Assembly (NCBI GenBank): GCA_016934035.1 | Contig: JAFGTP010000011.1 | Coordinates: 60,486-124,485, forward strand | Direction of reading: 5' to 3' | Length of the DNA: 64,000 bases | DNA from: Fidelibacterota bacterium | Lineage (GTDB): Bacteria; Fidelibacterota; UBA2242; JAFGTP01 | In this document: positions 12,452 to 57,914 of the stretch, piece by piece | Layout: every line of letters begins with the position of its first letter | How positions within the stretch are numbered: the stretch's first letter is position 1 | Program-made: the position numbers and the translations under genes | Notes under the pieces: generated by a model | Seen by the model: the letters and a program-made list of their open reading frames with translations, nothing else | Databases searched by the model: none | What the model was told of the DNA's origin: nothing

Positions 12452-12464
12452 TTTATTTATTTAG

Positions 12465-19339: not shown

Positions 19340-22300
19340 TTGAAGTGGTACGTTATGAAAAAGTGGGGAAATTTAATTTTTATTGGTGTTGCTATTCTGA
19401 ATTTCGCTTTCAGTAAAGAACAACCATTACATCTCATACCCCTGGATTTTAATCGGGCGATCCATTGTATTTATCAAGATTCAAACTATTATCTCTGGTT
19501 TGGTACAGATGATGGACTCTATCGGTATAACGGAAAAGATTATGTCGCCTACAAAATTGATCCTTATCAAAAGAATAGTATATCCGATGATAATATCACT
19601 GCCCTTTATGAAAATGGAAGTCGGGACCTGTTGATTGGGACAAAATTTGGCGGAATCAATAAATTTAATAGCAGTACGGAAAATTTTTTATCTTTTCAAA
19701 ATGACCTCATGTCCAGGGTTTCCATTCATGCAATATGTAATTTTCAGAATGAAATATTATTTGGGATTGATTCTGGATTATTCAGGCTGAAAAGTGAGAA
19801 TAGTGAATTGTCATACCAGGCTGTCCTTACCGGTTACACAATTACTGACATTTTATCTGTAGATGATCATTGTTTGATGGTTGCAACGGAAAATAACGGT
19901 TTTTTTCATTATGATAATTTTGAAAAGGAGGGTAGTGAAAAGGACCATTTTCTCAGTAATGTGGGAGTCAATTTTTTATTAAAGGTAAATAAAAATATTA
20001 TATTGATATCAACCAGGCAGGGGCTGTATTATTACAATTTGTCCGCAAAATCTCTTAAATCCATCGAGCACAAGGGAATAGTAAATTTATCCAGTGTTGA
20101 TAAAAATGCCATTACAATGGACCACCTCGGCAATATCTGGATAGGATTGGGGTATGAATTGCATCTGATTAGCACTTCTGACGACTTTAATTCCATTGAT
20201 ATTCAGTCCTTTGAACTGGATGTAGATAACCAGTTTTCAAAGGGAATTAATGCCTTGTATTTTGATCATAGCGGTGTCCTGTGGATCAACCTGAAAGGGA
20301 AAGGTTTATATAAATATTTCCCGTTACAAAAATTTTTGCATTTCAATATTGAAGAAGGATTGATGAGCAATATGATCTTTTCCGTCATTGAAAACAATTC
20401 CCATTCAATCCTGCTGGGCACCCATCATGGTTTATTTGTTTATGACCTGGAAGACCACCTTGTCGAAAGGATACCTGGAACGGAAGAACTGAATTTTCAG
20501 GTCATCACCGCTTTGTATAAAGATAGTTATCAAAACCTCTGGTGTGGCACGAATAATGGCCTCTACAAGTTTGGATCTTCCGGCGATCTTGTCCATTATA
20601 AACATTCCTCAAAGGAACTGAGCAGTATCAGTTCTGATTTTGTCTCCTCCATTGTTGGTGATCCGCTCAATGTTGGCGACCTTTGGATCGGTACTTCCGA
20701 CGGACTCAACCGCTATCGAAAAGAATATGACAATTTCATTCATTATTTTCATGACCAAAAGGATGAACATTCTATTGCCGGAAATAATATTTCCCATTTG
20801 TATTTTTCCCAAAAAAAGGACCTCTGGATCGGAACAGAGAATGAGGGACTGTCTAGATTAAATTGGGCAGAAATGAACAAATTTGACCCAAAATTTGTCA
20901 ATTATGGCGATGATATTACTCAAAAAGAAAGTATCAGCGATACCAAGATCACCTATATTTCCGAAAGCAATGACAGAATATGGATTGGAACTGAGAACGG
21001 CGGTTTGAATTCAATCGATACCCTAAACAACTTCAATCATTATCTTGAAACAAAGGGGCTTTTGGATAACCATATTTTGTCGATTTTATCCACTCAGGAT
21101 GATTTCCTCTGGATTGCAACACGGGACGGAATATCCAAATTCGATACTCGAAACCGTGTGTTTAAAAATTATTATTTCAAAGATGGTATAAAGAAGGGTG
21201 AATTTATTAATAAATCAGCCTGCATCACAAAAAATGGTAAAATTATTTTAGGTTCCAAAGCCGGCTTTACTTTTTTTCATCCGTCTCAGATTGTCAGCAA
21301 TATCAATCCGGCAGTTCCGCAGGTTGCCGGTGTTTATCTTTTTAACCAAAAAATAAAAAATGAAGATTTTAAAGGCCAGGGTGAAATTATCAAATTAAAA
21401 TATAACCAAAATGTTATCTCTTTTGAAATTTGTGCGCTTCACTATGTTTCTCCTCTTGAAAATATTATCGACTATTATCTCGAAGGTGTTGATGAGAGTT
21501 GGGGCAGATGTCGGAATTTTGAATACCTGACATATTCAAATTTAAAACCCGGTCAATATACTTTTCACATAAAAGTGGCTAATAATGACAATATCTGGAA
21601 TGAAAATGAAAAGAGCCTGAAAATTACGATAACTGCTCCGTTCTGGAGGACTTTTTGGTTTCAGTTTATTGTAATCTCTCTAATTGCAGGCCTGGCCTTT
21701 CTGTTCATCAAGCAACGTTTGAATGAGATTGAAAAGAAAAAATTTCATCTGGAAAAACAAATTGGGGATAAAATCAAAATCAATGAAGAACTTAATAAAG
21801 CCCTGGCAGAAGTAGAACAGTTGAAAATTAAACTTGAAAATGAAAACACTTATCTGAAAAAAGAAATTGAGGTCAGCGGCAATTCAAATTATAAAGAAAT
21901 CGTGACCAATAGTAAAAAGATGAATCATATTCTCGCCCAGGTGGATATCGCATCCGGTGCAGACCCGACTATTTTGATATTAGGCGAGTCAGGAACAGGA
22001 AAAGATCTCCTCGCTCATGCCATTCACAAAAGCAGTAATCGAAGCAAAGAGCCTTTTATCAAAGTTGATTGTGCCGCATTGCCCCCCAACCTTATTGAAT
22101 CAGAACTTTTCGGCCACGAAAAAGGTGCATTTACTTCAGCAAATATGCGTAAAATCGGGCGTTTTGAATTAGCCAACGGCGGGACAATTTTTCTGGATGA
22201 GATTGGAGAACTTCCGATCAAGGTGCAACAGAAATTATTGCGGGTCCTTCAAAGCGGAGAATTTGAACGACTCGGAAATTCTGTGACACTGAGAACCAAT

Positions 22301-22825
22301 ACACGCATCATTGCCGCAACAAACCGCAATCTTGAAGATGAAGTGAAAAAGGGACAATTTAGAGAGGACCTCTATTACAGGCTCAATGTCTTTCCGATCA
22401 ATATTCCGCCTTTGCGGGAAAGGATGGAAGATGTGCCCCTGCTCGTTCAGCATTTTATTGATAAATATGCTGGGAAATTCAATAAAACCATTACCAAAAT
22501 TCCGCAGAAAACCATCACTGCGCTGATGTCCTATTCCTGGCCCGGCAATATTCGTGAATTGGAAAATATCGTACAGCGGGCTATCATTATTAGCCGAGAC
22601 GACATACTGGAACTGGGTGATTGGTTTAAATCCAATCAACCCAATCGTGAAAACGATGATGAAAATATATTTATTTCTCTGGAAGAGATCCAAAAGCGCC
22701 ATATTGAAAGAATATTGGAATTTACCAATGGAAAAGTCAGCGGGGAAAACGGGGCTGCGGAAATTTTAAAAATTAACCCGAAAACTCTATTTAGCAGGAT
22801 GAAAAAATTAAATATAAATAACTAA
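19340..22825 (+). CDS. Membrane-anchored one-component sigma-54-dependent transcriptional activator with a periplasmic beta-propeller (two-component-regulator-propeller repeats)/Y_Y_Y sensor, then TM helix, coiled coil, AAA+ sigma-54 interaction domain and Fis-type HTH
   Basis: N-terminal signal/anchor. Repeated …LWFGTDDGL/…LLIGT/…IWIGT propeller repeats. Y_Y_Y-like segment (NLKPGQYTFHIKVANND). TM helix FWFQFIVISLIAGLAFLF. The AAA+ domain has Walker A ILILGESGTGKD, ELFGHEKGAFTSA (GAFTGA-type) and R-finger motifs. C-terminal HTH. No HisKA/HATPase or receiver segment is recognisable. Confidence 0.75.
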   Translation: MKWYVMKKWGNLIFIGVAILNFAFSKEQPLHLIPLDFNRAIHCIYQDSNYYLWFGTDDGLYRYNGKDYVAYKIDPYQKNSISDDNITALYENGSRDLLIGTKFGGINKFNSSTENFLSFQNDLMSRVSIHAICNFQNEILFGIDSGLFRLKSENSELSYQAVLTGYTITDILSVDDHCLMVATENNGFFHYDNFEKEGSEKDHFLSNVGVNFLLKVNKNIILISTRQGLYYYNLSAKSLKSIEHKGIVNLSSVDKNAITMDHLGNIWIGLGYELHLISTSDDFNSIDIQSFELDVDNQFSKGINALYFDHSGVLWINLKGKGLYKYFPLQKFLHFNIEEGLMSNMIFSVIENNSHSILLGTHHGLFVYDLEDHLVERIPGTEELNFQVITALYKDSYQNLWCGTNNGLYKFGSSGDLVHYKHSSKELSSISSDFVSSIVGDPLNVGDLWIGTSDGLNRYRKEYDNFIHYFHDQKDEHSIAGNNISHLYFSQKKDLWIGTENEGLSRLNWAEMNKFDPKFVNYGDDITQKESISDTKITYISESNDRIWIGTENGGLNSIDTLNNFNHYLETKGLLDNHILSILSTQDDFLWIATRDGISKFDTRNRVFKNYYFKDGIKKGEFINKSACITKNGKIILGSKAGFTFFHPSQIVSNINPAVPQVAGVYLFNQKIKNEDFKGQGEIIKLKYNQNVISFEICALHYVSPLENIIDYYLEGVDESWGRCRNFEYLTYSNLKPGQYTFHIKVANNDNIWNENEKSLKITITAPFWRTFWFQFIVISLIAGLAFLFIKQRLNEIEKKKFHLEKQIGDKIKINEELNKALAEVEQLKIKLENENTYLKKEIEVSGNSNYKEIVTNSKKMNHILAQVDIASGADPTILILGESGTGKDLLAHAIHKSSNRSKEPFIKVDCAALPPNLIESELFGHEKGAFTSANMRKIGRFELANGGTIFLDEIGELPIKVQQKLLRVLQSGEFERLGNSVTLRTNTRIIAATNRNLEDEVKKGQFREDLYYRLNVFPINIPPLRERMEDVPLLVQHFIDKYAGKFNKTITKIPQKTITALMSYSWPGNIRELENIVQRAIIISRDDILELGDWFKSNQPNRENDDENIFISLEEIQKRHIERILEFTNGKVSGENGAAEILKINPKTLFSRMKKLNINN

Positions 22826-22842
22826 CTATTTAAAAATCAGGA

Positions 22843-23622
22843 TTGGGTATGGTATCTGCAAAAAAAATTATCCGCATAATGGATAAATACAAGCTGGAGA
22901 AATTGTTGCTGTCACCACAGCATCACAATATTGAAAATGGGTCCTATGACTGGTTACTGGGCCTTTTCCCTGATATGGATCCACTGAAGATGAAATTAAA
23001 AATTGATTCCATATTTAAAAGTCAGAAAGTCAATTCAAATTTTGATATGAAAAACCAGGAGTTCATCAATGCTTGTTGTCTTGAAAATAACAGGCTTAAA
23101 TTAATCTATACAATTGATATTGGTAATGATGATATTATAAGAAAATTACAATCAGAATTTGGAAAATCGCCATTTTCTGCCTTGAAAATAAATAATTTGT
23201 TTTCTTCTCTGGACCGGAATAATCAAAATCTTTTCAGGGTAATTAATTTCTGTCGCATCAATGAAATGCCGCTACTGCTCTATGCCTATAAAAAAGCTGA
23301 CTGTGAAATTATCCGCAATCTTGCGGCTGAAAACCAATCCAACACCTTTATGATAGCCAGCATGAGCGGATTGGAATTTTTTGAACTTTATCGGGATTTG
23401 CCCGTGAACCTATTCTGTGAAATAAATAATTTAAACCTTGTTTCTGATTACAGGTTACTAAAAGCCCTGAATATATTTGGTCCCGGTCATTTGGTCTTTA
23501 GTTTTGAGGCCATCAATGAAGATAATCTCAGACACTCTATCATCAGAATCTGCAATCTGGCTGTTCCGGAAACTGTAAAAAGAAGAATTCTGGCGTTGAA
23601 TATTGAGACCTTGTTGAATTAA
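22843..23622 (+). CDS. Hypothetical cytoplasmic protein
   Basis: ORF of 259 aa starting 17 nt after the activator gene. No recognisable motifs. Confidence 0.35.
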   Translation: MGMVSAKKIIRIMDKYKLEKLLLSPQHHNIENGSYDWLLGLFPDMDPLKMKLKIDSIFKSQKVNSNFDMKNQEFINACCLENNRLKLIYTIDIGNDDIIRKLQSEFGKSPFSALKINNLFSSLDRNNQNLFRVINFCRINEMPLLLYAYKKADCEIIRNLAAENQSNTFMIASMSGLEFFELYRDLPVNLFCEINNLNLVSDYRLLKALNIFGPGHLVFSFEAINEDNLRHSIIRICNLAVPETVKRRILALNIETLLN

Positions 23623-23625
23623 TAT

Positions 23626-23645
23626 TTCTGAAATATCAGAAATAT
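23626..23645. promoter_or_regulatory. Perfect inverted repeat ATTTCTGA-AATA-TCAGAAAT (candidate transcription-factor operator or upstream activating sequence)
   Basis: Read directly. The same unit (TTCTGAAAT) recurs at 24326-24344 and many times in 29146-29299. Confidence 0.35.
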
Positions 23646-23777
23646 CTATAATATCCTAAAACAGTAACAATAATTTCCTGTAAATACTTTAAGAAATTAG
23701 TAATTTTTTTTAATTCCTTAAAAAAAATACGTCGGAAAATGAATTTCTCTTAGGGTTTTGAGGTCAAACAGAAATTT

Positions 23778-23865
23778 TTGGCATTTGAATTGTTAATAAC
23801 TCTATCACGTACCATACTAATCCACAGAAAAAGGAAGATGCACCCCGCACTTCCTTTTTCTTTTT
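23778..23865 (+). promoter_or_regulatory. Module A: sigma-54-like -24/-12 element (TTGGCAT-N5-TTGTT), conserved box GTACCATACTAATCC, and terminator-like hairpin plus T-tract. Candidate small RNA gene or attenuator
   Basis: TTGGCAT lies at 23778-23784 and TTGTT at 23790-23794. The box is at 23809-23823. Hairpin GAAAAAGGAAG/CTTCCTTTTT spans 23827-23859 and is followed by CTTTTT. A near-identical module lies at 28845-28932. Confidence 0.3.
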
Positions 23866-24150
23866 ACTGTGAATAAAAATCCAAAAACTAACCTAAATAA
23901 AAAATATTTTGAAAAAAACTGGATTAAATCGGACTACCCTGAGGGCTTTGAGTGTTGATTGTTCGGCTTTTTGGATTGTAAATGAACATTTTCGTTGTGA
24001 TTAGTTGCGGATAGCGAAAAGGCCCTAATACCAGGAATATTCAATAGAAATGCATCAGTAGATAAAATAATTTCAGACTACGTAACCGAATTTTCTTCAT
24101 TTTGTATTACCATAACTTTTAAGCCCTCGATTATCTTTATACTCAAATCC

Positions 24151-24187
24151 GGGCTTTAACCCGATAACGGTTTATGGGTTAAAGCCC
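24151..24187. other. Perfect 12-bp stem hairpin GGGCTTTAACCC-(13 nt)-GGGTTAAAGCCC in the long non-coding leader
   Basis: Read directly. There is no adjacent T-run, so it is not a classic terminator. The upstream TTTTAAGCCC at 24118-24127 could pair alternatively with the 5' arm. Confidence 0.4.
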
Positions 24188-24468
24188 ATTAAAAATGAAA
24201 TTCCATGTTACGAGTTATTCCTCGTGGCAATTCATACACACTTTTTCCAATATGTAATCCGGGATAATACATAGTTAAATAAAGCACCTTGTTCCAATCT
24301 TTTTTTGAAAAGGCAAACGATTAAATCCGAAATTTCAGAAAAAACCTAAATATCAGATAGTTCACTGCCTTATTTAATTGTTTTAATTTGATTGAATATA
24401 TTAGTAATTAACTGATTAATAGTAAATTATCATTTTATTTTGGGACCTTGTTTTAGAATATTGATCTT

Positions 24469-24523
24469 TTGGTACTCAAATTGGATGAGTAGAAATCGGA
24501 TGATAAGGGATTAATGTAAGGGG
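24469..24523 (+). promoter_or_regulatory. Proximal promoter/leader of SusC-like gene A: TTGGTAC-N5-TTGGA followed by conserved leader box GGATTAATGTAAGGGG
   Basis: The same architecture lies upstream of the second SusC-like gene (29382-29426). A strong RBS AAAGGAGGAAGGT sits before the ATG at 24584. Confidence 0.3.
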
Positions 24524-24583
24524 ACCCACCAATCACACCGTTTTACATTAATCACAAGTAAATAAAACATAAAGGAGGAAGGT

Positions 24584-27484
24584 ATGGCGAAATACTTGAT
24601 TTCGTTATTTCTTGTCCTGGTTCTATTCTGTCCATTAATTGCCCAGGATAGAATTTCAGGAACAGTGATCGATGATGTCACAGATGAACCGCTTGTGGCA
24701 GCAAATGTATTGATAAAGGGAACATCTGTGGGCACAGCCACGGATGAAGAAGGTCGGTTCTTTTTAAATTACAGCAACAATGAGGGGTTTACGTTGCAGG
24801 TATTCTATATGGGATACAAAATGAAAGAAGTTGTCTTTGAGCCGGGATCTGGTCTGGCTAACATTTTAGTTAGAATGCAGGAAGATGTGTTTAAAGGACA
24901 GGAAGTTGTGGTCACAGGCATTGCTTCTCAAATATCACGGGAGATAGCACCAGTCTCTGTAGGTTCGGTTGATGCAACAAAACTGACGGATTTAAACGCC
25001 TACTCGGATATTGCCCAATTGCTCAACGGGAAAATTTCCGGTACTAAAATCACATCTTCCAGTGGAAATGTGGGCGGGGGATATCGCTTTGATATTCGTT
25101 CCGGTGGCGGTCTCAACGGAGATGGTCAGCCCGTTATCTATGTAGACGGCATTCGTATTGACAATTCAGAGATTGAAACCCGTTACAGCAAAGGGGGACA
25201 GGAAATCAGCATGATGGCTTCTCTTAATCCTTCAGAAATTGCAAATATTGAAATTCTGAAAGGTCCGGCTGCTGCAGCGACCTATGGAACGGACGGTTCT
25301 AATGGAGTTGTCCTCATTACAACCAAAAAGGGACAACTGGTCCAGGGCGGAAAAGGATATTCTATCAACTATAATTATAAATTTGGTACCAATTCCCAAT
25401 CCTATCAATACACCAAAGATGATGTTGTTTCCTACAAGGCCGCCAATTCTGTTTTCAAAGATGGTGATTTTGTGGGTCATGACCTCAGTATTTCCGGTGG
25501 TAATAAAGCAACAAAATACTTTTTTACCATGGGTATCCAGGATGAAGAAGGGATTATGGTTAACAATTTTCATAATCGTAAAAATATGCGTCTGAATGTT
25601 GACGCTGTGGCCAGTGAACAATTAAACCTGTCCGCAACCATTGCCATGAACCAGTCAGAACTGGCCCGTCCGGAAAATGATGATAATATTTATGGATGGG
25701 GTGGAAATACACTTTTAAGGCCCACACCCTGGGGTTGGCTGGACAGCATTGAAATTGCGGCGGCTGAAGAAAATATTGACATTAAAAAAATGTCCGGTAG
25801 TTTCAAGGCAACTTACAGGCCCTTCAAAAATTTTTCAATCAATGGATCCATTGGAGCGGAACATTCAAATATGAACCATTATTCCTATTACCCGCCATGG
25901 GGAGATTATCTCTATACCAATGGTTCTAAACAACTGACAGACCGATTCAATACACAGTTTACCTACACTTGGTATGCCGGATATAAATACAATATTCTGG
26001 AAGGCTTTACCGGAAACACCAAAGTTGGCGGCCAGTTATTCGATCAGGAACTGAGAAGAAATTATTTGGCCATTGATTCATTGTCATCAGATAAACTGAA
26101 AGATATTGGTTCTGCAAACGGTGAAGATTTTCTGGACGATTATGGTGAAAACTATGCGACCTTTCGAACTGCAGGGTTATTTTTGGATAATGCATTTAAT
26201 TTTCAGGATAAATTGTTTATAGGGGCCAGTATCCGGCAGGATTTTGCCAGTTCTTTATCGCCCAAAGCACCGAATATCATTTACCCCCAGGCTAATGTTG
26301 CAATCAGACTGGACCGGTTTGGATTGACACCCGGCCTGATTGATATGGCAAAAATCAGATTAGCCTACGGTGAAACAGGGCAGTTGCCGGGATCAACCCA
26401 GTCAACTCCATTGATATGGGCAGCTGAACAGTCGGGATATGGTGGTGGGCTAACGGTATCGGAAATTGGAAACAACAAACTGGAACCGGAAAGAATCAAG
26501 GAATTGGAAATCGGACTGGATTTGGGGCTTTTCAACCGCTACAAAATCGAAGCTTCTTATGCCAAAATGAACGCTGAAAATTCAATCGTGGGTAGAAATC
26601 TGGCGCCTTCAACCGGACTGGTGGTCACAGCTTTTCCTGATAATATCGGAAAAATTGAAGGACACTCCTTTGAGCTTGGCCTGGATGCAGTACTGGTCAA
26701 TGAAAAAAATGTTCGTCTTGAGATCAACCAGAGAAATTCATGGCAGAAAGATGAGATTACGATAATGCCGGAACCATCCTATACCAATGACATCCAGGTT
26801 CTGATGGAAGGTAAATCCAGATGGACGTTCTTTGATGAGAAAGTAGATTCCATCATGTATGATGAAAATGGAAAGTTTCTGGACTACCGTATATCCACAG
26901 ATAAGAAAGACCTGGGAGATGCCATACCCGATTATTTTGGTTCTTTGTCGATGAACCTTACCTTGTTCCGACATGTGAATATCTATGGATTATTGGATTG
27001 GCAGACTGGTGTCAAAGTCTATAATTTTACCAAGGTCTATCAAACTTTTTTTGGCAACAATGTGGCCTATAATGAAGCCACTGCCCTGGTGGATTCTCTT
27101 AATGCCATTGATGGGTATGATTATCATTCCGGAAAATACAAAAAAGCGGTTAAAGATTATGTGAAATACGATGCGGTTTTTTATGGTTCAAGGGCCGCTT
27201 TTATTGAAAATGGCGATTACCTGAAAATCAGAGAATTGAGCATCAGTTATGACGCCTCCCATTTACTGAAAAAATATCTGCCCAATGCAGGGATTGAAAG
27301 ACTGGCTTTTTCTTTTACAGCAAATAATCTCATTACATGGACGAAATATTCCGGTGCTGATCCCGAGGTCAATTCCACCGGCTCAACTGTAGATGGCGGT
27401 GAGACCTATGTTACCAGAAATGAAGATTTTTTGACAATGCAGCATCCTAAGAGGATTGCATTTTCAATACAATTGGGTTTATAG
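24584..27484 (+). CDS. SusC/RagA-like TonB-dependent outer-membrane receptor
   Basis: Signal peptide. Carboxypeptidase-regulatory-like N-domain (ISGTVIDDVTDEPLVAANVLIKGTSVGTATDEEGRF). Plug region and a long beta-barrel ending in an aromatic-rich C-terminus. A SusD-like gene follows. Confidence 0.85.
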   Translation: MAKYLISLFLVLVLFCPLIAQDRISGTVIDDVTDEPLVAANVLIKGTSVGTATDEEGRFFLNYSNNEGFTLQVFYMGYKMKEVVFEPGSGLANILVRMQEDVFKGQEVVVTGIASQISREIAPVSVGSVDATKLTDLNAYSDIAQLLNGKISGTKITSSSGNVGGGYRFDIRSGGGLNGDGQPVIYVDGIRIDNSEIETRYSKGGQEISMMASLNPSEIANIEILKGPAAAATYGTDGSNGVVLITTKKGQLVQGGKGYSINYNYKFGTNSQSYQYTKDDVVSYKAANSVFKDGDFVGHDLSISGGNKATKYFFTMGIQDEEGIMVNNFHNRKNMRLNVDAVASEQLNLSATIAMNQSELARPENDDNIYGWGGNTLLRPTPWGWLDSIEIAAAEENIDIKKMSGSFKATYRPFKNFSINGSIGAEHSNMNHYSYYPPWGDYLYTNGSKQLTDRFNTQFTYTWYAGYKYNILEGFTGNTKVGGQLFDQELRRNYLAIDSLSSDKLKDIGSANGEDFLDDYGENYATFRTAGLFLDNAFNFQDKLFIGASIRQDFASSLSPKAPNIIYPQANVAIRLDRFGLTPGLIDMAKIRLAYGETGQLPGSTQSTPLIWAAEQSGYGGGLTVSEIGNNKLEPERIKELEIGLDLGLFNRYKIEASYAKMNAENSIVGRNLAPSTGLVVTAFPDNIGKIEGHSFELGLDAVLVNEKNVRLEINQRNSWQKDEITIMPEPSYTNDIQVLMEGKSRWTFFDEKVDSIMYDENGKFLDYRISTDKKDLGDAIPDYFGSLSMNLTLFRHVNIYGLLDWQTGVKVYNFTKVYQTFFGNNVAYNEATALVDSLNAIDGYDYHSGKYKKAVKDYVKYDAVFYGSRAAFIENGDYLKIRELSISYDASHLLKKYLPNAGIERLAFSFTANNLITWTKYSGADPEVNSTGSTVDGGETYVTRNEDFLTMQHPKRIAFSIQLGL

Positions 27485-27493
27485 GAGGTTTAT

Positions 27494-28741
27494 ATGAAAA
27501 ATATTAAAATAATTTTATTGCCGGTTTTACTCTTCTCAATAGTCATGGTGTCCTGTGAAGATTGGGTCCAGGATTTACCTCCCCGCGAGGATATTATTGA
27601 AGATGATGTTCTGGTAGATGAAGCCGATATCGATTTACTGGTTCTGGGTATCAAGACCAATTTTTCTTCAACTATTGAGCGGTCCTCGCTCTATTCGGAA
27701 ATATTGGGAGATGCTGTAATTAATGGTCGCTATGTTTGTCAGGATGCCACTTATGATGTCTGGCGCGAACTTGAAGAAGGTGATATTCAATTAAACAATG
27801 CGGCGGTTGACGGGCTTTCCACAAATATTGGAGAAATGTGGCACTGTGCCACCAATCTCGTCGATCGTATCACCAATCGAATGGGAGAAATCAGTGAAGA
27901 AAAGAAAAATTATGGGCTTTTCAACGGCCATCTGTTTGAAGGCATTGCTTATGAGATTTATGCCAATTATTATGGTCTGAATGAAGAAGAAGGCGGTGGA
28001 TGTATCAACTCCGGGCCTTTTACCAATTCAGGGCAGCTCTTTGATATGGCCCTGAATAAATATGAAGAGGCCCTCAATTTTACCAGTGATCCCTGGGAAA
28101 TCCGGGTGGTGAATTCACTGATGGCCAGGTGTTATTTATATAAAGGTGATTATTCCGGTTCCAGGATATGTGGAGCACTGGGTTTGACAGAAGGTGACCA
28201 GCCCTTTGAGGCGCTTTATGTTCAGTCCTCGGATAATTATTGGTGGCAGCAAGCCAGCATTGGACTTCGTGTCCAGGTCATTGTGGATAACAGGTTTGCT
28301 CAGTATATCGATGAGGATCCCAACGAAGCCAACCGCATTCCGCTTTATGAATTGCCTGACGAATTAAATGTGTCAGAAGATACTGCGGCGGTTTATTGGA
28401 CCCAGGGTAAGTATATTGAGGCAGATGCGCCTATCGCTTTTATCACCTGGCAGGAGACCTATCTGATCCTGGCTGAACTGGCTGCAATAAGAGGACAATC
28501 GGGCAATGCCCTTGATGCTGTCAATGCAGTTCGTGGCAGTCATGGAATTGATCCGGTGTCCGAAGTCAATCGTGATTTGATCATCACAGAGCGGGATAAA
28601 GAATTATTTACCACAGGTGCAAGGCTGATCGATCAGCGTCGTTTTGATCTATGGCATTTGCCCTCCGGTACATGGAAGTATCTCCCAATCACGGAAAGTG
28701 AACGAAATGCCAATGATAATTTGCCCAATGTCGGTGAATAA
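27494..28741 (+). CDS. SusD/RagB-like lipoprotein
   Basis: Lipobox VMVSC. Sits immediately after the SusC-like gene. C-terminus …RRFDLWHLPSGTWKYLPITESERNANDNLPNVGE matches the SusD-family C-terminal LPIP-x-SE-x-NPNL-type tail. Confidence 0.7.
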   Translation: MKNIKIILLPVLLFSIVMVSCEDWVQDLPPREDIIEDDVLVDEADIDLLVLGIKTNFSSTIERSSLYSEILGDAVINGRYVCQDATYDVWRELEEGDIQLNNAAVDGLSTNIGEMWHCATNLVDRITNRMGEISEEKKNYGLFNGHLFEGIAYEIYANYYGLNEEEGGGCINSGPFTNSGQLFDMALNKYEEALNFTSDPWEIRVVNSLMARCYLYKGDYSGSRICGALGLTEGDQPFEALYVQSSDNYWWQQASIGLRVQVIVDNRFAQYIDEDPNEANRIPLYELPDELNVSEDTAAVYWTQGKYIEADAPIAFITWQETYLILAELAAIRGQSGNALDAVNAVRGSHGIDPVSEVNRDLIITERDKELFTTGARLIDQRRFDLWHLPSGTWKYLPITESERNANDNLPNVGE

Positions 28742-28758
28742 CTAATGAAATTAACCAT

Positions 28759-28800
28759 AAAGTCCTCTTTGAATTGCAAAGGGGACTTTTACTTTTCTTA
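28759..28800 (+). terminator. Rho-independent terminator after the SusD-like gene
   Basis: AAAGTCCTCTTTG-aatt-CAAAGGGGACTTT (one mismatch) followed by TTACTTTTCTT. Confidence 0.5.
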
Positions 28801-28844
28801 ACGATATCACAATGCAGAACAGAAAAAACATCCGAATCATACTA

Positions 28845-28932
28845 TTGGCATTCATATTGTTATGCTAAAAGATGTACCATACTAATCCTAGGAAAAGGAA
28901 AGTCTCTCTCAAATAAACTTTCCTTTTTCTTT
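28845..28932 (+). promoter_or_regulatory. Module B: second copy of the sigma-54-like element (TTGGCAT-N5-TTGTT), GTACCATACTAATCC box, and hairpin plus T-tract
   Basis: TTGGCAT lies at 28845-28851 and TTGTT at 28857-28861. The box is at 28874-28888. Hairpin AAAAGGAAAGT/ACTTTCCTTTT is followed by the same CTTTTTCTTTTT tail as module A. The stems differ by compensatory changes. Confidence 0.3.
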
Positions 28933-29145
28933 TTCCAGATAAAATTCCCGATATCAAATCAGTGCTATCCCCCGACAGAGTAAAAATGGCGACAGGAAAG
29001 GCTTTTTTTCAAACTGTTAAATCTGTCTTCAGAGTCTTATAAAAAAATGGTGTATGGAATGATGTTCGAATTTTTATTTAAAAATCTGATATTTACATTA
29101 ATTATTTAATGTATTTGTTGAATTTTTTTTAATAAAAATAGTTTA

Positions 29146-29299
29146 ATATCAGAAAAGTATGATTTAGTTGAGGGTTTGATCGGTTTTTTTGAAGTATTTA
29201 AGAAATTCTGAAAAAAAATTCGGAAATTTCGGAAATTTCGGAAAGTTCTGAAATATCCTATATTTAATCCTTTTTGCATTATTCTGAAATATCAGAAAA
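29146..29299. promoter_or_regulatory. Array of 9-bp TTC(T/G)GAAA(T/G) units: five direct repeats (29206-29254), an inverted repeat ATTCTGAAAT-ATCAGAAAA (29281-29299) and isolated half-sites (29146-29157). Candidate activator binding region
   Basis: Read directly: TTCTGAAAA, TTCGGAAAT x2, TTCGGAAAG, TTCTGAAAT, and a palindrome built from the same unit. It lies about 85 to 240 bp upstream of the proximal sigma-54-like element at 29382. Confidence 0.4.
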
Positions 29300-29381
29300 C
29301 TAATTTTTAACATAAGTATTATCAATATTTTATCCAAATAAATATCGGTGTGATTGAAAAAAAATAATTCAAAATGGGCTC

Positions 29382-29426
29382 TTGGTACATCTGTTGAGAA
29401 ATACCTATCAGGATTAGTGTAAGGGG
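29382..29426 (+). promoter_or_regulatory. Proximal promoter/leader of SusC-like gene B: TTGGTAC-N5-TTGAG followed by GGATTAGTGTAAGGGG box
   Basis: Same architecture as 24469-24523. RBS AAAAGGAGGAAAGT sits before the ATG at 29493. Confidence 0.3.
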
Positions 29427-29492
29427 GTGTCAAAAAACACATCTAAAACACAATCATACAAAGTGCTAACGAGGTTAAAAAAGGAGGAAAGT

Positions 29493-32400
29493 ATGACAAG
29501 AAATGTCATTTTATGGTTATTGACCATCCTGTTACCATTTGTTCTATTCGCTGGAACAACTGGTAAAATTTCAGGAATAGTAACCGACAAGGAAACCGGT
29601 GAACCCTTACCCGGTGTTAATATAGTGGTTACCGGTGGCGGTCTGAATACCGGAGCGGCAACTAACATCACCGGTTATTATTCCATTATTAATGTTCCTG
29701 TAGGTGATTATGAAATGAAAGTATCCTACATGGGAAAAAAGACCATTGTAATTAAAAACCTACATGTATCCCTGGATTTGACGACAGAAATCAATCTTGA
29801 GATGGAAAACAGTACATTGGATATGGAAGAAGTTCTGGTTACTGCCGAACGCAAAATTATCAGAAAAGATGAAACCAATACCAATGTTATCAAAACTGCT
29901 GAAGATATTGAAAATCTTCCCGTAAGAGGTATGCAGGAAATTGCAGCCGCCACAGCAGGTGTTGTGAAAACAGCGAATTCCAACAACATGAATGTTCGTG
30001 GCGGACGTGCAGCAGAAACTGCAGTGTATATAGACGGCGTACTGGTTAATGATCCCTATAACAGTGCCGTCAGACTGTATTTGCCAAACGAAGCAATTGA
30101 AGAAATGAGTGTCCAGACCGGTGGTTTCAATGCCGAATACGGTGATGCCATGTCGGGTATTGTTGCTTTGACCACCAATGTTGGGACAAAAGAATACAAG
30201 GCCTCTATATCTTTTGATACGGACCAGTTTCTGAGTGCTGAGGAAAAATTTCTGGGGACCTATTCCTATGGCCATAATGAGTATGTTGCCACCTTGAGTG
30301 GTCCTATTATTCCTGGAAAAAATCATACATTCTTTTTCAGTGGAACCCGTCAATACCAGGCTGACTGGACGCCTTCTTATGGCTGGTCAGAAAATCCCTA
30401 TCGTCTGGAGGAAATGGATTATCATCAGACTTTTATGTATGACAATGAATTTGACAGCATTCGTATTGCTTATAATGATGAAATGGAAAAAATGGATACA
30501 ACCCTGATAACCTATACCGAAAGAGATACACTTGATCTCGGTAACCATCAATACAAGTTTAATGCAAGAATACCTGGCAATTTCAACAGTGTCTGGTCAT
30601 GGAACGGAAAATTTAAATTACAATTGACCGAAGGGATTTCACTGAAAACCGGTTTTGCCAGAACTGACAGGGAATTTGCTGCAGATCCTTATTATGATGA
30701 TGCGATGCACCGGCAATATTTCTTCAATCAGGACCATGGTCCTGTTCAGTCCAATCAGACAACATCTCTCAATACCACGCTGACTCATACTGTTTCCAAT
30801 AATACTTTTTATGATTTAAGATTCAAATATTTTGATACAGAGCGGAAATGGTACGATAAGGAATTTGGTGATGATCTGGAAAAATATGGTAGTGTTGAAG
30901 ACCAGCCCTTTCCGGATCAAAATATATTCTACGTCGGTAGTGAAGAACTCCGGTCGCTTTATGAAGAGCGGTATGACCGTGGAACTTCAACATTTAAAGG
31001 TACTAGGTTCAACGGTTCTCTGGAACCGGACTTTTTTGCGCCCGGTGTTCCTTATGACGATTATTTTAAAAACAGAACAACCTATTGGGGAATCGATTTT
31101 GATCTGACCCACCAATTGGGAAAACATCATACCTTTAAAACCGGGTTTGAATATAAATATCACACCATGCGTGAATTTCGTATGGTAAGTCCCTACAATT
31201 ACGTCGGAGATTATGATACTGATATTGAAAGATATCAGGGTGCGGACCTGCGATTCTACGGTTATGATGTTGAGGGTAAAGAAGTGGATGACGGGCCAAA
31301 TTTTCTGGATGATGTCGAAAGAGATGAATCCGGACAGCCCACATCTGGTTATGACAAACAGGAACCCTATCATCCGATTATTATGAGTGGTTATTTGCAG
31401 GATAAAATAGAGTATGAAAATATTATCATCAATATGGGACTGAGATATGACCGGATTGATCCCAATGCCTGGATGTTCAAACAAATTGATAAACAGGTTG
31501 ATGCAGATGGCAATTACATCAATGGCACCGGTATGTTTGGTGGCAATGAACAATTTGATGCTGTAGATACAAAACCCTCAGAAGTATATGACTATCTCAG
31601 TCCTCGTCTGGGCGTGTCTTTTCCGATTACCGAAAGTACTGTTTTCCATACACAATATGGTATTTTCTATCAGGCACCTCAGCTCATGGACCTTTATCTG
31701 AGTCCTTTTTATCTGGATACCTATGTATCAGGTGGTGGTTATTTTACTGTGATTGACAATCCAAATTTACGGCCACCCAAAACCACTTCCTATGAATTGG
31801 GTTTCAAACAAATGCTTGGCAATCGCGCTTCGCTGCAGCTGACGACCTTTTTCAAGGAAACTGAAGACCTGGTACTGATATTCCCACATTTGACCGATGC
31901 TACGGAAATCGCTTTTACCGATAATGGTGATTTTGGCACCATCAAAGGTTTTGATGTGATTTTTACTATGAGAAGATTCAATAATCTTTCACTGAATATG
32001 AATTATGAGTTCCAGGTAGCCAGAGGGACCGGATCCAGTACCAATTCCAATTTTGATATCGCCTGGCAGGATGGTTCCCGGGACGGAAACTTTCCAAAGT
32101 TTGCAATGCCCCTGGATTTTGAGCAGCGACATCGCGGCAGTATCATAATGGATTACCGATACGGGCAGGATGATGCACCAATCGGTTTTCTGAATAATGC
32201 CGGTATCAATATGATGTTTACTTTTAATTCAGGTAATCCCTATACTTTGGCGGTTGTTGCCAACACCAATCCTTTTGGCGGCCGGAATGACAATGATGGT
32301 ATTTCAGAAAAACCCTTTTCAGCAGTCGGTGCGGAGCGGACTCCCTGGATGTATCAGACAGACCTGAAAGTAGATAAAAGAATGACTTTCGGAAAAATAA

Positions 32401-32666: not shown

Positions 32667-35600
32667 ATGAGAAAAATTATAATATATACCTTGACAATGG
32701 TTTTTCTTCTGTCTGCATTTTTGATGGCTGAAGAAAATCAAAAGAAAACCAATGGCCCACTGGCGAAAACCGCCATGACCAGTGATATTTGGATGGACGC
32801 CAACAGGTTAAATGGTTTTATGAGAAATAATGGAATCTGGTTTTATGATATTCCAGCTCATACCTGGGGCCTGGAATGGCCGAAAGGCTCGGGTCTGAGC
32901 CCTATGTATGCCTGCGGACACTGGCTGGCTGCCCGTGTTGACGGCGAGGTCCGGGTAGGAGGAATTGTCCATGATGCCACCGAATATCAGCCGGGTGAAA
33001 TTCTTTCCCCCGGAATTGCTGCAAATCCCAATGATCCTGCCTACAGGTGGTATGTTCTCAGGCCCTCAGGTGTGGGTGACTGGAACAGCTGGCCGGTAGA
33101 GCAGGGAGCGCCGGTTGATGCAGAAGGGAATCCGATGATGATCGGTGATTATTCCGCCTTTTGTGTCTGGAATGATCTTGCGCCTCATACCCGTTTTGGA
33201 ACTGGAAAATTGAATGCTCAAATCCAGCAATTTGTCTGGGCCTTTAACCGGGCTGATGCACTGGGAGACATGATGTTTTCTAAATGGACTATTGTCAATA
33301 AAAGTGGCACCGATTGGAAAGACACATATTTTACGATTTGGACTGATCCTGATGTTGGAAATGCCACCGATGATTTTGTTGGTTGCGATACGGTTCTGGG
33401 AATCGGTTATTGCTACAATGCGACCAATGATGACCAAAATTATGGTGCTGCACCACCAGCAGTGGGCATTGATTTTTTCCAGGGACCCATTATTGATGAA
33501 GAGGGATCCCAGGTTATTTTGACCGATGGAACAGTCCTTGAAAATAAGAAAAAACTGAAAATGACATCCTTTGTCTATTTCAATAACAATGATAACCCGC
33601 AAAACGGAACACCCAATACGGGCCAGGATGCCTACAATTACATGAGGGCCATCTGGAAAGACGGTACATCGGTAACCGAAGGTGGCGTCGGTACTAATGC
33701 CAATAATCCGCCAGCCTCCTTTATGTTCAGCGGTGATCCGGTGACTGGCACAGGCTGGAATGACTCCAATGAAGATGACAGACGTTTCATGATGACTACC
33801 GGTCCCTTTAACATGACCTATTGGGAAGCCAATAATCCAAACCGCGATTTGAATATGAATGGTATCGCTGATTTCGGTGAACCCGGAGTCCAGGCTATCG
33901 TTGCTGGTTTTATTGTTGCCCGAGGAACCGATAATCTCAATTCAGTCGCCAAATTGAAACAGGTCGATGCTCTGGCGCAGCTGGCCTATGATGTAGATTT
34001 CAAACTGGCCAAAAACCCGATGTCTCCTGAAGTTGAAATCAGTGAATTGTCCAATGAAATTCTTTTGAACTGGACTGGCAATTCAGAATTCAATGAAGAT
34101 GGAACATTGTATGAATCCGCTGATCCGATCGTAGCCAAAGCCTTTGGCGATACTGTAATTATGGATAATATGGAAAAAGTCATTGCTGATTCAACCTATA
34201 ATTTCCAGGGTTATTCAGTTTACCAGTACGCTGATGCCGGTGGTGCCTCTCCGGTTCTCATTGACCACTGGGAAGTCGAAGATGCTTCAGAAGCTGCTCC
34301 CTATACCGGACCTAGAATGATTCGCATTACTCAGAATTCTCACGGTCAGGTAGGAAATGTCGGCGATTTACTGATTAACGGTAAGCAATATTATTTTGGT
34401 GTCGTCGCTCAAGGTTATTGCGAATTTGGTGCACCCATGATATTGGAAAGTGCTCCAACGATTGTCTCCGTCATTCCCCAGCAAAGGCTTGGACAGAGGA
34501 CTTATTCTGTATTCGGTGATTCTATCACAGTGACCCATATGAGAATTGACACAACTCAACCAACCAGTCAGGGCAATGTTGCCGCTTTGGTTGTTGATCC
34601 GACCAAAGTGACCGGCCACGATTACAAAGTTGGTTTTTATAACGATTCACAAGATAATCCGGTCTGGTATTTATATGATGAAACTGTAGGTGATACCCTT
34701 TTGAACAAGCAGGAAAATCAGAGAAATGACGAAGCCTACAATGTCACTGATGGAATGGTTGTCAAAGTCTCCGGTGCAGCTCCCAGTATTATTAGCGTTT
34801 CTCAGGTAGACACGGACAATTGGGATGAAGTCATTGACGCAACCCTGATTGGCAGTCTCAATGCAAAAGCGGATTATTCCGTTGGAAAACCTGCTTTTCT
34901 GGTAGCTGCTGCAGGGGCAGACGAAGGGGATGACGCAACCCAATTTACACAATGGGACTGGAAAGGTAATACAACTCCCAATGATATCGTCATTGAATTT
35001 GTTGAACCTGAAGAAGGACAGCTTGTTCTCAATGGCTGGGCTGACGCTCCAAATTCTGCCGATGGCAACTGGTTTCTCAACGGATGGATTGAATCGGATA
35101 CGGTGGGTGGTGAACAGACCATCCATGATACCCATGGCAGATTGCCTTTTAGAGTATGGATGATTACACCCTCTGGTGAAAGGACCCAGATCATTGCAGC
35201 TGTGCTGGAAGATAATGATAATTGGTATTGGGATCAGCAGCAGCCTGGAATTTTTGTTGATGGCGCTCTCAGTGGATGGGAAAGATTGTATTTATTAAAT
35301 TATCCCTACAATGAAACGGAACTGACCAGTGACGGCGGTGATAATGTACTCAACAATTTATTCTGGGGATCGCTCTATCCTGCTGCCCACTCAATCGGCC
35401 GCTTAATTTTTTCCATGTACTATGATCTATGGTCACCGGGAACAGGCGGACTTTGGGGAAAACCACCGGCAGCCGGTACTGTTATTCGTTGGAATTCTGC
35501 AAAACCCAATAGTGAAAATGATTATTACACCTTTACAGCACCAAAGGCTGCAACAGATTCCACCAGTCATCAGAAAGATGATATAAAAAATATCCAAGTG

Positions 35601-35900
35601 GTTCCCAATCCATATTATGGTTATCATTCCGGTGAAATGAATATTTTCCAGCGATGGGTGCAATTTACCAATCTGCCCGAAGAATGCACTATCAGAATAT
35701 TCGATCTTGCCGGCAACCAGATCAAGAAAATTCAAAAGAATGATCCAGCAACAACATTAGCGCAATGGGACCTTAGCAATGAATACGGCCTTCCGGTCGC
35801 CAGCGGTATTTATGTCTACCATGTAGATATTCCGAAGGTTGGCGAAAAAGTCGGCAAACTTGCGATCTTTGCTCCTAATGAACGGATGGATACTTACTAA
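32667..35900 (+). CDS. Large secreted protein of unknown function with T9SS C-terminal sorting domain
   Basis: Signal peptide. About 1000 aa with no motif I can assign. The last about 90 aa (IQVVPNPYYG…CTIRIFDLAGNQIKKI…ASGIYVYHVDI…KLAIF) match the T9SS type-A CTD pattern. Confidence 0.55.
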   Translation: MRKIIIYTLTMVFLLSAFLMAEENQKKTNGPLAKTAMTSDIWMDANRLNGFMRNNGIWFYDIPAHTWGLEWPKGSGLSPMYACGHWLAARVDGEVRVGGIVHDATEYQPGEILSPGIAANPNDPAYRWYVLRPSGVGDWNSWPVEQGAPVDAEGNPMMIGDYSAFCVWNDLAPHTRFGTGKLNAQIQQFVWAFNRADALGDMMFSKWTIVNKSGTDWKDTYFTIWTDPDVGNATDDFVGCDTVLGIGYCYNATNDDQNYGAAPPAVGIDFFQGPIIDEEGSQVILTDGTVLENKKKLKMTSFVYFNNNDNPQNGTPNTGQDAYNYMRAIWKDGTSVTEGGVGTNANNPPASFMFSGDPVTGTGWNDSNEDDRRFMMTTGPFNMTYWEANNPNRDLNMNGIADFGEPGVQAIVAGFIVARGTDNLNSVAKLKQVDALAQLAYDVDFKLAKNPMSPEVEISELSNEILLNWTGNSEFNEDGTLYESADPIVAKAFGDTVIMDNMEKVIADSTYNFQGYSVYQYADAGGASPVLIDHWEVEDASEAAPYTGPRMIRITQNSHGQVGNVGDLLINGKQYYFGVVAQGYCEFGAPMILESAPTIVSVIPQQRLGQRTYSVFGDSITVTHMRIDTTQPTSQGNVAALVVDPTKVTGHDYKVGFYNDSQDNPVWYLYDETVGDTLLNKQENQRNDEAYNVTDGMVVKVSGAAPSIISVSQVDTDNWDEVIDATLIGSLNAKADYSVGKPAFLVAAAGADEGDDATQFTQWDWKGNTTPNDIVIEFVEPEEGQLVLNGWADAPNSADGNWFLNGWIESDTVGGEQTIHDTHGRLPFRVWMITPSGERTQIIAAVLEDNDNWYWDQQQPGIFVDGALSGWERLYLLNYPYNETELTSDGGDNVLNNLFWGSLYPAAHSIGRLIFSMYYDLWSPGTGGLWGKPPAAGTVIRWNSAKPNSENDYYTFTAPKAATDSTSHQKDDIKNIQVVPNPYYGYHSGEMNIFQRWVQFTNLPEECTIRIFDLAGNQIKKIQKNDPATTLAQWDLSNEYGLPVASGIYVYHVDIPKVGEKVGKLAIFAPNERMDTY

Positions 35901-35941
35901 CGGTCAGGTTATCTGATAACGTAATTATGGAGGAAAAAGTT

Positions 35942-36976
35942 ATGAATAAAAATATATTAAAAATCACAAGCCTATTAATTTTGATACTGTTCAGCCAGGT
36001 GGTTTTTGCCAGTGGAAGCCGTGTTGGTACTGCTGCAGCTCCGGAATTGTTGATTCCCATGGGAGCCCGAAATGTGTCCCTGGGCTGTTCGGATATTGCC
36101 AACGTTACCGGCACCGATGCCATTTACTGGAACCCGGCGGGACTCTCTTACATCAAACAGGCCGAAGCAACCTTCAGTTATTTGAAGTATTTTGCTGATA
36201 TGAATGTCGCTTACATTGCTACCGGAATCAAGATGGGACAATTGGGTGCTGTCGGTATCAGTATTCAGTCACTGAATATCGGAAAAATTAAAGTGACAAC
36301 CATTGAAGCGCCTGAAGGCACAGGACAGGAAATTACTCCTGACTACCTTACTGCCGGATTGACTTATTCCAAAAAATTGACCAATAAAGTCGCATTTGGA
36401 AGCAATGCTAAAATCATCAGTGAAAATATTGGAAATATGTCAGCCACAGCTTTTGCCATTGACCTGGGACTGCAATACCACACCGAATTTGGACTTGATT
36501 TCGGTATTACCATGAAAAATATCGGTACTGATATGAAATTTGACGGACCGGAAATTGAATTCAACTCTGATATTCCTTTTGCAAATCCCAATGCCACAAC
36601 CCGCAAAACCAAACTGGACATGGCCTCCAACGAATTGCCCACCAGCATGAATATGGGACTGGCTTATACCCGAAAATTCAGTGATGCTGTAGCGGCTTCC
36701 TGCTATGGTCAATACAGTAAAAATACACTGGACATGGACAGAATGAATTTGGGTGGTGAAGTCAATCTGAACAACCTGTTGTTCCTGAGAGCAGGCTATA
36801 TTTATAATATCTATCCTGAAGATTGGGAGTGGGACAAGGACGCCCAGTTCAATTTTAGTTACGGCCTCGGATTAAATTTGATGGTTTCCGGGACCAAAGT
36901 CTATTTTGATTATGCATTCAGACCGATGGAATTGTTTGATGCGAATCAATACTTCTCCATTAGCGTAGGTTTTTAA
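35942..36976 (+). CDS. PorV/PorQ-family outer-membrane beta-barrel protein (T9SS-associated)
   Basis: Signal peptide. N-terminal GSRVGTAAAPELLIPMGARNVSLGCSDIANVTGTDAIYWNPAGLS resembles the PorV-family signature (GT-AA-FL-IG-GARA-AMGGA…DASA-YWNPAGL). C-terminal aromatic. ATG at 35942 with RBS GGAGGA. Confidence 0.55.
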   Translation: MNKNILKITSLLILILFSQVVFASGSRVGTAAAPELLIPMGARNVSLGCSDIANVTGTDAIYWNPAGLSYIKQAEATFSYLKYFADMNVAYIATGIKMGQLGAVGISIQSLNIGKIKVTTIEAPEGTGQEITPDYLTAGLTYSKKLTNKVAFGSNAKIISENIGNMSATAFAIDLGLQYHTEFGLDFGITMKNIGTDMKFDGPEIEFNSDIPFANPNATTRKTKLDMASNELPTSMNMGLAYTRKFSDAVAASCYGQYSKNTLDMDRMNLGGEVNLNNLLFLRAGYIYNIYPEDWEWDKDAQFNFSYGLGLNLMVSGTKVYFDYAFRPMELFDANQYFSISVGF

Positions 36977-43728: not shown

Positions 43729-43930
43729 GATTTCCCTCCTTTGAATAATCCCTCTAAACGAGATTAATATATTTGAAGGAATCTGAAATAAAAAGTAATT
43801 TTTCATGCCTCATAAACAAAAACAGCTGCAAAAAAGCTGTTTATAATTTGTTTAAACAAAACAAACTCCAAACTAACATTACATTGCTTAATATTTTGGC
43901 ATGAGGATTTATTAACTAATTGGAGGTTTT

Positions 43931-54426: not shown

Positions 54427-57914
<3,488 letters not shown>

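Follow-up and report, generated by a model that had tools for sequence, protein, structure and literature searches.

Two paralogous modules beside SusC/SusD and TonB-receptor operons of a Fidelibacterota bacterium: candidate sigma-54-dependent genes for small regulatory RNAs

Gene content and organization of the locus

The window, which is the whole stretch of 64,000 nucleotides of Fidelibacterota DNA that was analyzed, contains, in this order, the genes for an enhancer-binding protein and for a protein of 257 amino acids, a short intergenic module (copy A), a SusC/SusD operon, a second such module (copy B), and the genes for a TonB receptor, a protein of 1077 amino acids, and a PorV-like protein (Table 1). 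The 257-amino-acid protein lacked Pfam matches at a threshold as permissive as E ≤ 5, and a search of 5.8 billion clustered proteins yielded three homologues only, each of which is encoded between an enhancer-binding protein gene and an A-type copy of the module. The 1077-amino-acid protein, which displayed faint matches to type IX secretion C-terminal signals, and the PorV-like protein are encoded downstream of the TonB receptor (positions 32667-36976), which suggests a secreted or surface-attached partner of this receptor. A separate cluster at positions 41800-47904 comprises the genes for a GH97 glycosidase (- strand), a further TonB-dependent receptor, and a phytase. The sole RNA gene retrieved in the window with Rfam and ARAGORN was that for a tRNA-Leu (CAA; positions 12464-12548, - strand).

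Two sigma-54 sensing systems are present within these 64 kb (positions 19355-22825 and 50200-55829). The former consists of the single-protein sensor upstream of copy A, the periplasmic Reg_prop/Y_Y_Y part of which is fused directly to the sigma-54 AAA+ activator and HTH_8 domains, and which resembles the hybrid two-component sensors of Bacteroides, but with a sigma-54 output. The latter comprises a histidine kinase with Reg_prop, Y_Y_Y, and PAS domains and a separate receiver-sigma-54 activator, the second sigma-54 activator of the window being this receiver-containing response regulator (positions 54420-55829).

The SusC/SusD operon and the TonB-receptor gene each possess a promoter-like element and a leader of their own (Table 1), and degenerate palindromes occur upstream of the SusC/SusD promoter (positions 24325-24356). 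The SusC and TonB-receptor mRNAs would start with a conserved 5' hairpin, the TonB version having G:C where the SusC version has A:U. The 3' arm of this leader hairpin loosely resembles the putative seed described below. The leader of the TonB-receptor gene, with its hairpin at positions 29411-29456, was nearly invariant in three species. Both hairpin arms were kept, with a diverged loop, in the orthologous SusC leader of locus L026 (positions 2014-2059), which belongs to another species. In that locus, a Cas6 gene (positions 689-1372) adjoins the orthologous SusC/SusD pair, and no module is present on either side of this pair. This indicates that the transporter pair and the putative small RNA (sRNA) genes do not form a fixed unit.

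Table 1. Features of the module-bearing region (positions are those of the window).
Feature	Position	Strand	Remark
Enhancer-binding protein gene, 1156 aa	19355..22825	+	Pfam: Reg_prop/Y_Y_Y sensor, Sigma54_activat AAA+ (E = 1e-69), HTH_8
Start region of the 257-aa gene, AGGATTGGGTATGGTA	22839-22859	+	Candidate seed target
257-aa orphan gene	22849..23622	+	Between enhancer-binding protein gene and A-type copy
Palindrome TTCTGAAATATCAGAA	23626..23641	.	Candidate upstream activating site, 153 nt before copy A promoter
Copy A, whole module	23779-23865	+
Copy A, sigma-54-type promoter, TGGCAT-N5-TTGT	23779..23793	+	GG at -24, G at -12/-13
Copy A, predicted small RNA, ~61 nt	23805..23865	+	Putative 5' end
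Copy A, box GTACCATACTAATCC (15 nt)	23809-23823	+
Copy A, terminator hairpin	23826-23861	+
Copy A, stem arms AAAAGGAAG / CTTCCTTTT	23829-23837 / 23850-23858	+
Copy A, tail TCTTTTT	ends 23865	+
SusC/SusD promoter, TGGTAC-N5-TTGG, and 5' leader hairpin	24470..24553	+
SusC leader hairpin arms GATTAATGTAA / TTACATTAATC	24509-24519 / 24543-24553	+
SusC/SusD operon	24584-28741	+	Between modules A and B
SusD terminator hairpin	28759..28789	+	Directly 3' of SusD, 55 nt before copy B promoter
Copy B, whole module	28846-28934	+
Copy B, sigma-54-type promoter, TGGCAT-N5-TTGT	28846..28860	+
Copy B, predicted small RNA, ~65 nt	28870..28934	+	Putative 5' end
Copy B, box GTACCATACTAATCC	28874-28888	+	Same as box of copy A
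Copy B, terminator hairpin	28890-28930	+	13-nt loop
Copy B, stem arms AAAAGGAAAGT / ACTTTCCTTTT	28893-28903 / 28917-28927	+
Copy B, tail TCTTTTT	ends 28934	+
Palindrome-like cluster TTCGGAAATTTCGGAAATTTCGGAA, TTCTGAAATATCC, TTCTGAAATATCAGAA	29203..29297	.	Between copy B and TonB-receptor promoter
TonB-receptor promoter, TGGTAC-N5-TTGA, and leader	29383..29456	+	Receptor ATG at 29493
TonB-receptor leader site GGATTAGTGT	29411-29420	+	Complementary to seed

Anatomy of the two modules

The two modules are collinear on the + strand of the window, each consisting of a TGGCAT-N5-TTGT element, a 15-nt box, a hairpin, and a U-tail. The first-pass annotation had described two copies with a near-identical promoter-like element, box, and U-tail, and this was confirmed, the stem arms that it quoted being exact. 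The hairpins that it reported are real as well, but their loops had to be redrawn. Indeed, the 12 nt between the arms of copy A contain three further pairs (TGC/GCA), a bulged A, and an ACCCC loop in the predicted fold, and the loop of copy B is 13 nt long (CTCTCTCAAATAA), the 15-nt string given for it having counted two stem bases a second time. The copies A and B have an 8-bp stem base in common (AAAAGGAA/TTCCTTTT). Above it, the stems differ by one double change, namely G:C in copy A and A:U in copy B (alignment columns 33/51), and copy B has two extra pairs relative to copy A. Since SusD possesses a terminator hairpin of its own, the hairpin of copy B is not simply the SusD terminator.

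The predicted fold of copy A had a free energy of -18.7 kcal/mol (z = -7.5 versus dinucleotide shuffles), with the 5' 21 nt unpaired, and that of copy B amounted to -14.9 kcal/mol (z = -2.8 versus dinucleotide shuffles). When the four additional copies described below were included, the hairpin-containing folds ranged from -14.9 to -20.8 kcal/mol, with z-scores of -2.8 to -7.6, and were followed by 4-9 U residues. The first ~20 nt, including the box, were unpaired in all six folds. The stems are A/U-rich and long-looped or bulged, and were not called by a simple consensus terminator scan. A stable stem-loop followed by a U-rich tract, as is characteristic of an intrinsic terminator, was found in the predicted folds, and the pairing was preserved through compensatory changes.

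A back-of-envelope calculation indicated that about two same-strand pairs of a repeated 15-mer are expected by chance in 64 kb. It is the collinearity of the blocks, the folding, and the conservation in two other species, and not the repeated 15-mer by itself, that place the module well beyond chance. A small open reading frame (ATGCACCCC...) in copy A was rejected, as its ATG is missing from the orthologues.

Additional copies and their origin

Four more distinct copies were retrieved (L012, L013, L014, and L021) from two related metagenomic species, so that six copies were available in total. The B-type comprises the copies of the window, L012, and L014, and the A-type those of the window, L013 (conspecific with L015-L020), and L021, the count of three species being judged by shared samples. 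The B-type copy of L012 was reached by synteny via a SusD homologue of 66% identity, and the A-type copies of L021 and L015-L020 were reached via homologues of the 257-amino-acid protein that are 60-62% identical. L013 and L014 came from a pattern scan of metagenomes. Five of the six copies were reached without use of the box sequence, i.e., by synteny or protein homology.

All six copies have the same part order. Whereas the spacers, loops, and flanks diverge, no variation occurs in the promoter blocks, the box (15 out of 15 positions identical), the stem base, or the tail. The neighboring proteins are just 60-66% identical between the species. Each species possesses one A-type and one B-type copy, and the types group across the species. 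Since all three species hold both types, the copies A and B appear to be paralogues that were duplicated before the divergence of these three related Marinimicrobia species. With a covariance model derived from all six copies, scores of 81 and 73.8 bits were obtained for copies A and B of the window, respectively. With Rfam, no match was obtained for either copy at gathering thresholds over the whole window, and nothing relevant was retrieved at E ≤ 10 over positions 23500-29600. Furthermore, a scan of species-representative genomes for the promoter plus box yielded only three chance matches, in coding regions of unrelated bacteria, an absence that constitutes weak evidence, as the pattern required TTGY at -12 and was blind to TTGA copies.

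The occurrence of two similar copies 5 kb apart in the window might also reflect a short dispersed repeat or the remnant of a mobile element that was copied by chance into two intergenic regions. Such an origin is highly improbable, as A and B were the only copies that the covariance model detected in the window, and it detected none at all in L005, L009, and L010, which are more distantly related. In addition, neither terminal repeats nor target duplications were found around the copies, and both copies are syntenic in the three species, with A- and B-types grouping across them. Hence, the modules are treated below as a pair of paralogous genes.

Covariation of the hairpin stem

The first-pass annotation had proposed that the stem changes between copies A and B are compensatory and argue for selection on RNA structure. 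The two copies of the window alone provided thin evidence in this respect, consisting of one double substitution plus an indel, and the four further distinct copies support the proposal. The stems of the latter could have been non-compensatory, which would have spoken against it; they turned out to be compensatory, with the exception of an A·G combination in L014, located at the loop-closing position. In the six-copy alignment, 98.7% of the stem cells pair, and three pairs changed on both sides, a covariation that involves few independent events from three closely related species only. When the 3' partners were slid by 1-3 columns as a control, no pairs changed on both sides. For example, position 35/45 in the upper stem of the A-type is U:A, C:G, and A:U in the three copies, and where a G:C pair near the stem base of the A-type has shifted, the A-run and the U-run are both shorter by one base.

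G·U pairs occur on the + strand in copy B of the window and in L012. As these would be C·A on the opposite strand, an RNA transcribed from the + strand is favored over a palindrome in the DNA. This finding bears on the possibility that the module acts at the DNA level, the box being a protein-binding site beside a bidirectional terminator or insulator and the RNA being without function. The location of the modules between operons would agree with such an element, as would the A-run before and the T-run after the hairpin, which could allow termination in both directions. Yet, the G·U pairs fit a + strand RNA only, the flanking genes are all located on the + strand, leaving nothing to terminate from the opposite side, and the terminator of SusD already precedes the promoter of copy B by 55 nt. 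Also, the -24/-12 blocks, which are conserved in position and precede the box by 13-16 nt, suit a transcription start and not a free-standing operator. A DNA-level element is therefore quite unlikely, and the modules are better read as transcribed units. What selection has preserved here is an ordinary terminator hairpin, and the invariant box is the more informative part of the module.

Promoter-like elements and candidate activator

In the six copies, the promoter-like element reads TGGCA[T/C]-N5-TTG[T/A], with invariant TGGCA and TTG, constant spacing, and variable flanks. This spacing agrees with the sigma-54 consensus TGGca-N4-5-ttGCaa (PMC2831329). In the six copies, T or A, and never the canonical C, follows the -12 G. 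This also applies to all sigma-54-like promoters seen in the lineage, in which the G at -12 is followed by T, A, or G, and never by C, as inspected at positions 23792-23793, 24483-24484, 28859-28860, and 29396-29397 of the window, around position 6673 of L009, and in the promoters of L012, L013, L014, L021, and L026. A sigma-54-like promoter lacking the C at -12 may be a lineage-specific variant, and recognition of the module promoters by sigma-54 is plausible from their sequence. The rpoN gene was not seen in the sequence examined. A sigma-70 reading was rejected: TTGGCA resembles a -35 box, but no conserved -10 box accompanies it and a consensus scan called no such promoter on the + strand. 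A transcription start ~12-13 nt after the -12 G would place the box at +2 to +5 of the transcript.

The module promoters are likely to be activated by the enhancer-binding protein encoded upstream of copy A. Its gene adjoins the A-type copy wherever sequence upstream of an A-type copy was available, including the species of L013. Moreover, in each of the three A-type loci (window, L013, and L021), TGGCAT is preceded at a distance of 153-156 nt by an exact copy of the palindrome TTCTGAAATATCAGAA. The A-type loci thus combine an adjacent enhancer-binding protein with a candidate upstream site, as is typical of sigma-54 promoters. No palindrome was found upstream of the B-type copies, the activation of which would have to come from the palindrome cluster ~350 nt downstream. 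This cluster, which was kept in L012 and L014, is a candidate shared enhancer. A tandem run at positions 29203-29261 (TTCGGAAATTTCGGAAATTTCGGAAAGTTCTGAAATATCC) represents overlapping half-sites of the TTCTGA-N4-TCAGAA palindrome; a match of these positions to a CRISPR repeat in Rfam was weak and considered spurious. The same palindrome family, together with a TGGTA[C/T]-N5-TTG[A/G] element, precedes the SusC and TonB-receptor operons (window, L012, L014, and L026), and an operon of L009 is preceded by the variant CGGCAC-N5-TTGA.

The arrangement of these promoters also allows an evaluation of whether the modules are cis-acting leaders or attenuators, in which a promoter and a premature terminator would gate read-through into the transporter operon downstream, with the short RNA as a mere by-product. 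Both copies of the window are indeed located upstream of TonB-type transporter genes on the same strand, and the B-type copy always precedes the same TonB-receptor gene. Nevertheless, the transporter genes start 560-720 nt further and are served by sigma-54-type promoters and palindromes of their own. As for the A-type, it is the upstream neighbors that are constant, whereas the downstream gene differs, being SusC in the window and a CsgG/PEGA-like gene in L013. In addition, no alternative anti-terminator fold was predicted, the 5' part being unpaired, and an invariant 15-nt box that matches the start of a distant gene would be left unexplained. A role in cis is thus considered improbable, and the interpretation of the modules as free-standing sRNA genes is pursued below.

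Complementarity of the box to start regions of genes

The reverse complement of the box (GGATTAGTATGGTAC) can be read as the remnant of a Shine-Dalgarno sequence followed by a spacer and an ATG. A perfect complement to 13 contiguous bases of the box was found in the start region of a SusC-like gene of locus L010 (GGAGGATTAGTATGGTGA), where it spans both ribosome-binding site and start codon. A gene for an ECF-type sigma factor is located nearby. L010 is part of the same metagenome-assembled genome (MAG) as the window, on another contig, an assignment that depends on MAG binning: the proteins of L010 carry JXQ65 locus tags, the SusD-like protein encoded between copies A and B is identical to a protein of the JXQ65 MAG, which is labelled Candidatus Marinimicrobia bacterium, and the tetranucleotide correlation between L010 and the window was 0.968, compared to 0.972 between the window's own halves. 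In SusC orthologues at 86% and 75% protein identity, the site is identical and the sequence further upstream has diverged. The orthologue at 86% stems from the same samples as the species of L013. The predicted duplexes of the box with the SusC start regions of the three orthologues amounted to -23.4 to -25.0 kcal/mol. As expected for a base-pairing sRNA, the putative seed was more conserved than the rest of the module, and its candidate target site was conserved too.

Pairing energies were calculated for 52 start regions, taken from both the window and L010. The SusC-like gene of L010 ranked first (-24.5 kcal/mol), followed by the 257-amino-acid protein gene (-20.2 kcal/mol) and the next start region (-15.3 kcal/mol), the median being -8.0 kcal/mol. 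Only one out of 400 shuffled seeds matched either of the top two values. It has to be mentioned that the SusC-like target was noticed post hoc, in a locus retrieved for another purpose, and that the screen covered ~85 kb of the genome, so that stronger targets may exist elsewhere.

Besides the SusC-like gene, three further sites of complementarity were found. Firstly, the start site of the 257-amino-acid protein gene, AGGATT[G/T]GGTATGGT, is conserved in three species, with predicted duplexes of -16.6 to -20 kcal/mol. Secondly, predicted pairing with the leader of the TonB receptor extends over 10-13 bp and reached -20.6 kcal/mol in the window and -23.1 kcal/mol in L014. Thirdly, the start of the enhancer-binding protein gene (AAGTGGTACGTTATG; positions 19340-19357 of the window and 6487-6504 of L015), which is conserved in two species with diverged upstream sequence, shows 8-9 nt of complementarity to the very 5' end of the predicted A-type RNA (CACGTACCA) and could be a feedback site on the regulator. 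Other candidates were rejected. A high-scoring seed match at positions 6496-6535 is located ~70 nt inside the coding sequence of a class IV aminotransferase, with the ATG out of frame, and was ascribed to chance. The starts of the neighboring transporters themselves were unremarkable (-14.0 and -10.9 kcal/mol), and the leader of the SusC gene downstream of copy A was weak (-10.2 kcal/mol). The start region of the TonB-dependent receptor at positions 41800-47904 gave no match to the seed (-7.8 kcal/mol).

Alternatively, the modules could encode genuine sRNAs that act chiefly by binding a protein, for instance of the RRM type, or as a sponge, and not by pairing with the SusC start. The FopS sRNAs of Bacteroides bind an RRM protein, RbpB (PMC11697453), and in related species an 81-amino-acid RRM_1 protein is encoded 1.2 kb upstream of the predicted SusC target (L022 and L023, positions 8578-8823). 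Protein binding as the main mode of action is nonetheless unlikely, as the perfect match of 13 nt falls exactly on the ribosome-binding site and start codon in three orthologues, shuffled seeds almost never equaled the pairing strength observed, and no repeated protein-binding motif was evident in the single-stranded part.

Proposed mode of action

From the sequence evidence as a whole, the two modules are probably free-standing paralogous genes for regulatory RNAs of ~61-65 nt, which would be driven by the same sensor as the neighboring sugar-uptake genes and repress the transporter of a competing uptake system. A first step would consist of binding of the membrane sensor/enhancer-binding protein to the TTCTGA-N4-TCAGAA palindromes, thereby activating sigma-54 RNA polymerase at TGGCAY-N5-TTG[T/A]. 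Transcription would then begin a few bases before the box and stop at the hairpin and U-tail, the structure of which is backed by covariation and the ends of which are predicted. Next, the single-stranded box would act as a seed for pairing with the SusC-like mRNA from another uptake locus of the same genome, at its Shine-Dalgarno sequence and start codon. Complementarity and its conservation were observed for this pair, and the pairing would block translation of the SusC-like protein. Induction of one uptake system would thereby result in repression of the other. The start region of the 257-amino-acid protein gene and the 5' leader of the TonB-receptor operon downstream of copy B are considered secondary candidate targets. 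The modules are best regarded as a candidate new sRNA family with a familiar predicted mode of action.

A more extended scenario is possible, although it is put forward tentatively. A sugar-sensing enhancer-binding protein may directly drive its own uptake operons together with a pair of sigma-54-dependent sRNAs that silence a rival SusC, with possible feedback on the regulator operon, via the start regions of the 257-amino-acid protein gene and of the regulator itself, and on the leader hairpin of the co-induced TonB receptor, the whole representing an independent invention of the FopS type in uncultured Marinimicrobia. If so, the hierarchy of polysaccharide utilization loci (PULs) would, unlike that of FopS, be wired straight to the substrate sensor. 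Experimental demonstrations of post-transcriptional control of PULs stem mainly from gut Bacteroides. Should the prediction hold, the logic of a 5' seed sRNA acting on a SusC start would extend to a globally abundant, uncultured marine phylum, and its link to a sigma-54 sensor would offer a testable model of substrate ranking.

Comparison with known systems

In the literature searched, no report was found of sigma-54-driven sRNAs or sigma-54-controlled SusC/D loci in Marinimicrobia. At the level of structure, the 3' part of the module resembles a generic intrinsic (Rho-independent) terminator, with a stable hairpin, a U-run, and a stem kept by compensatory changes. It differs from the latter in that the hairpin would end its own unit of ~60 nt and not a protein-coding operon.

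The promoter logic of the modules parallels that of the Qrr sRNAs, without homology. The quorum-regulatory Qrr1-5 of Vibrio are paralogous sRNAs, each with a sigma-54 promoter activated by a single enhancer-binding protein, LuxO, that share a conserved pairing region and repress the translation of their targets (PMC3730234; PMC8043402). The modules had no sequence or covariance-model match to this family, with its conserved region of ~32 nt, in Rfam, and their predicted regulon concerns nutrient uptake, in contrast with quorum sensing. Qrr sRNAs are longer, possess several stem-loops, and depend on Hfq, whereas the modules have one hairpin only.

The closest functional analogue of the modules is represented by the FopS sRNAs, although the modules are not members of that family. 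Both Bacteroides and the host of the modules belong to the FCB superphylum. The FopS sRNAs of Bacteroides thetaiotaomicron are ~65-70 nt long, consist of a 5' single-stranded seed and a terminator, repress SusC start regions, and are antagonized by the RRM protein RbpB (PMC11697453). According to its authors, the family (FopS/GibS) has been deposited in Rfam (PMC11697453); the modules had no Rfam match at gathering thresholds or E ≤ 10, a comparison in which the FopS model was unconfirmed within release 15. The likeness concerns the occurrence of a multicopy sRNA with a 5' seed and a terminator, for which pairing at a SusC-like start was predicted in silico here. The systems differ in several respects. 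First, FopS sRNAs possess canonical sigma-ABfr promoters and are induced by bile salts, whereas the modules have sigma-54-type promoters and an adjacent enhancer-binding protein. Second, 14 copies of FopS are present per genome, compared to two of the modules. Lastly, the modules occur in another phylum than the FopS host, namely Marinimicrobia/Fidelibacterota, and their role is predicted, whereas that of FopS has been demonstrated.
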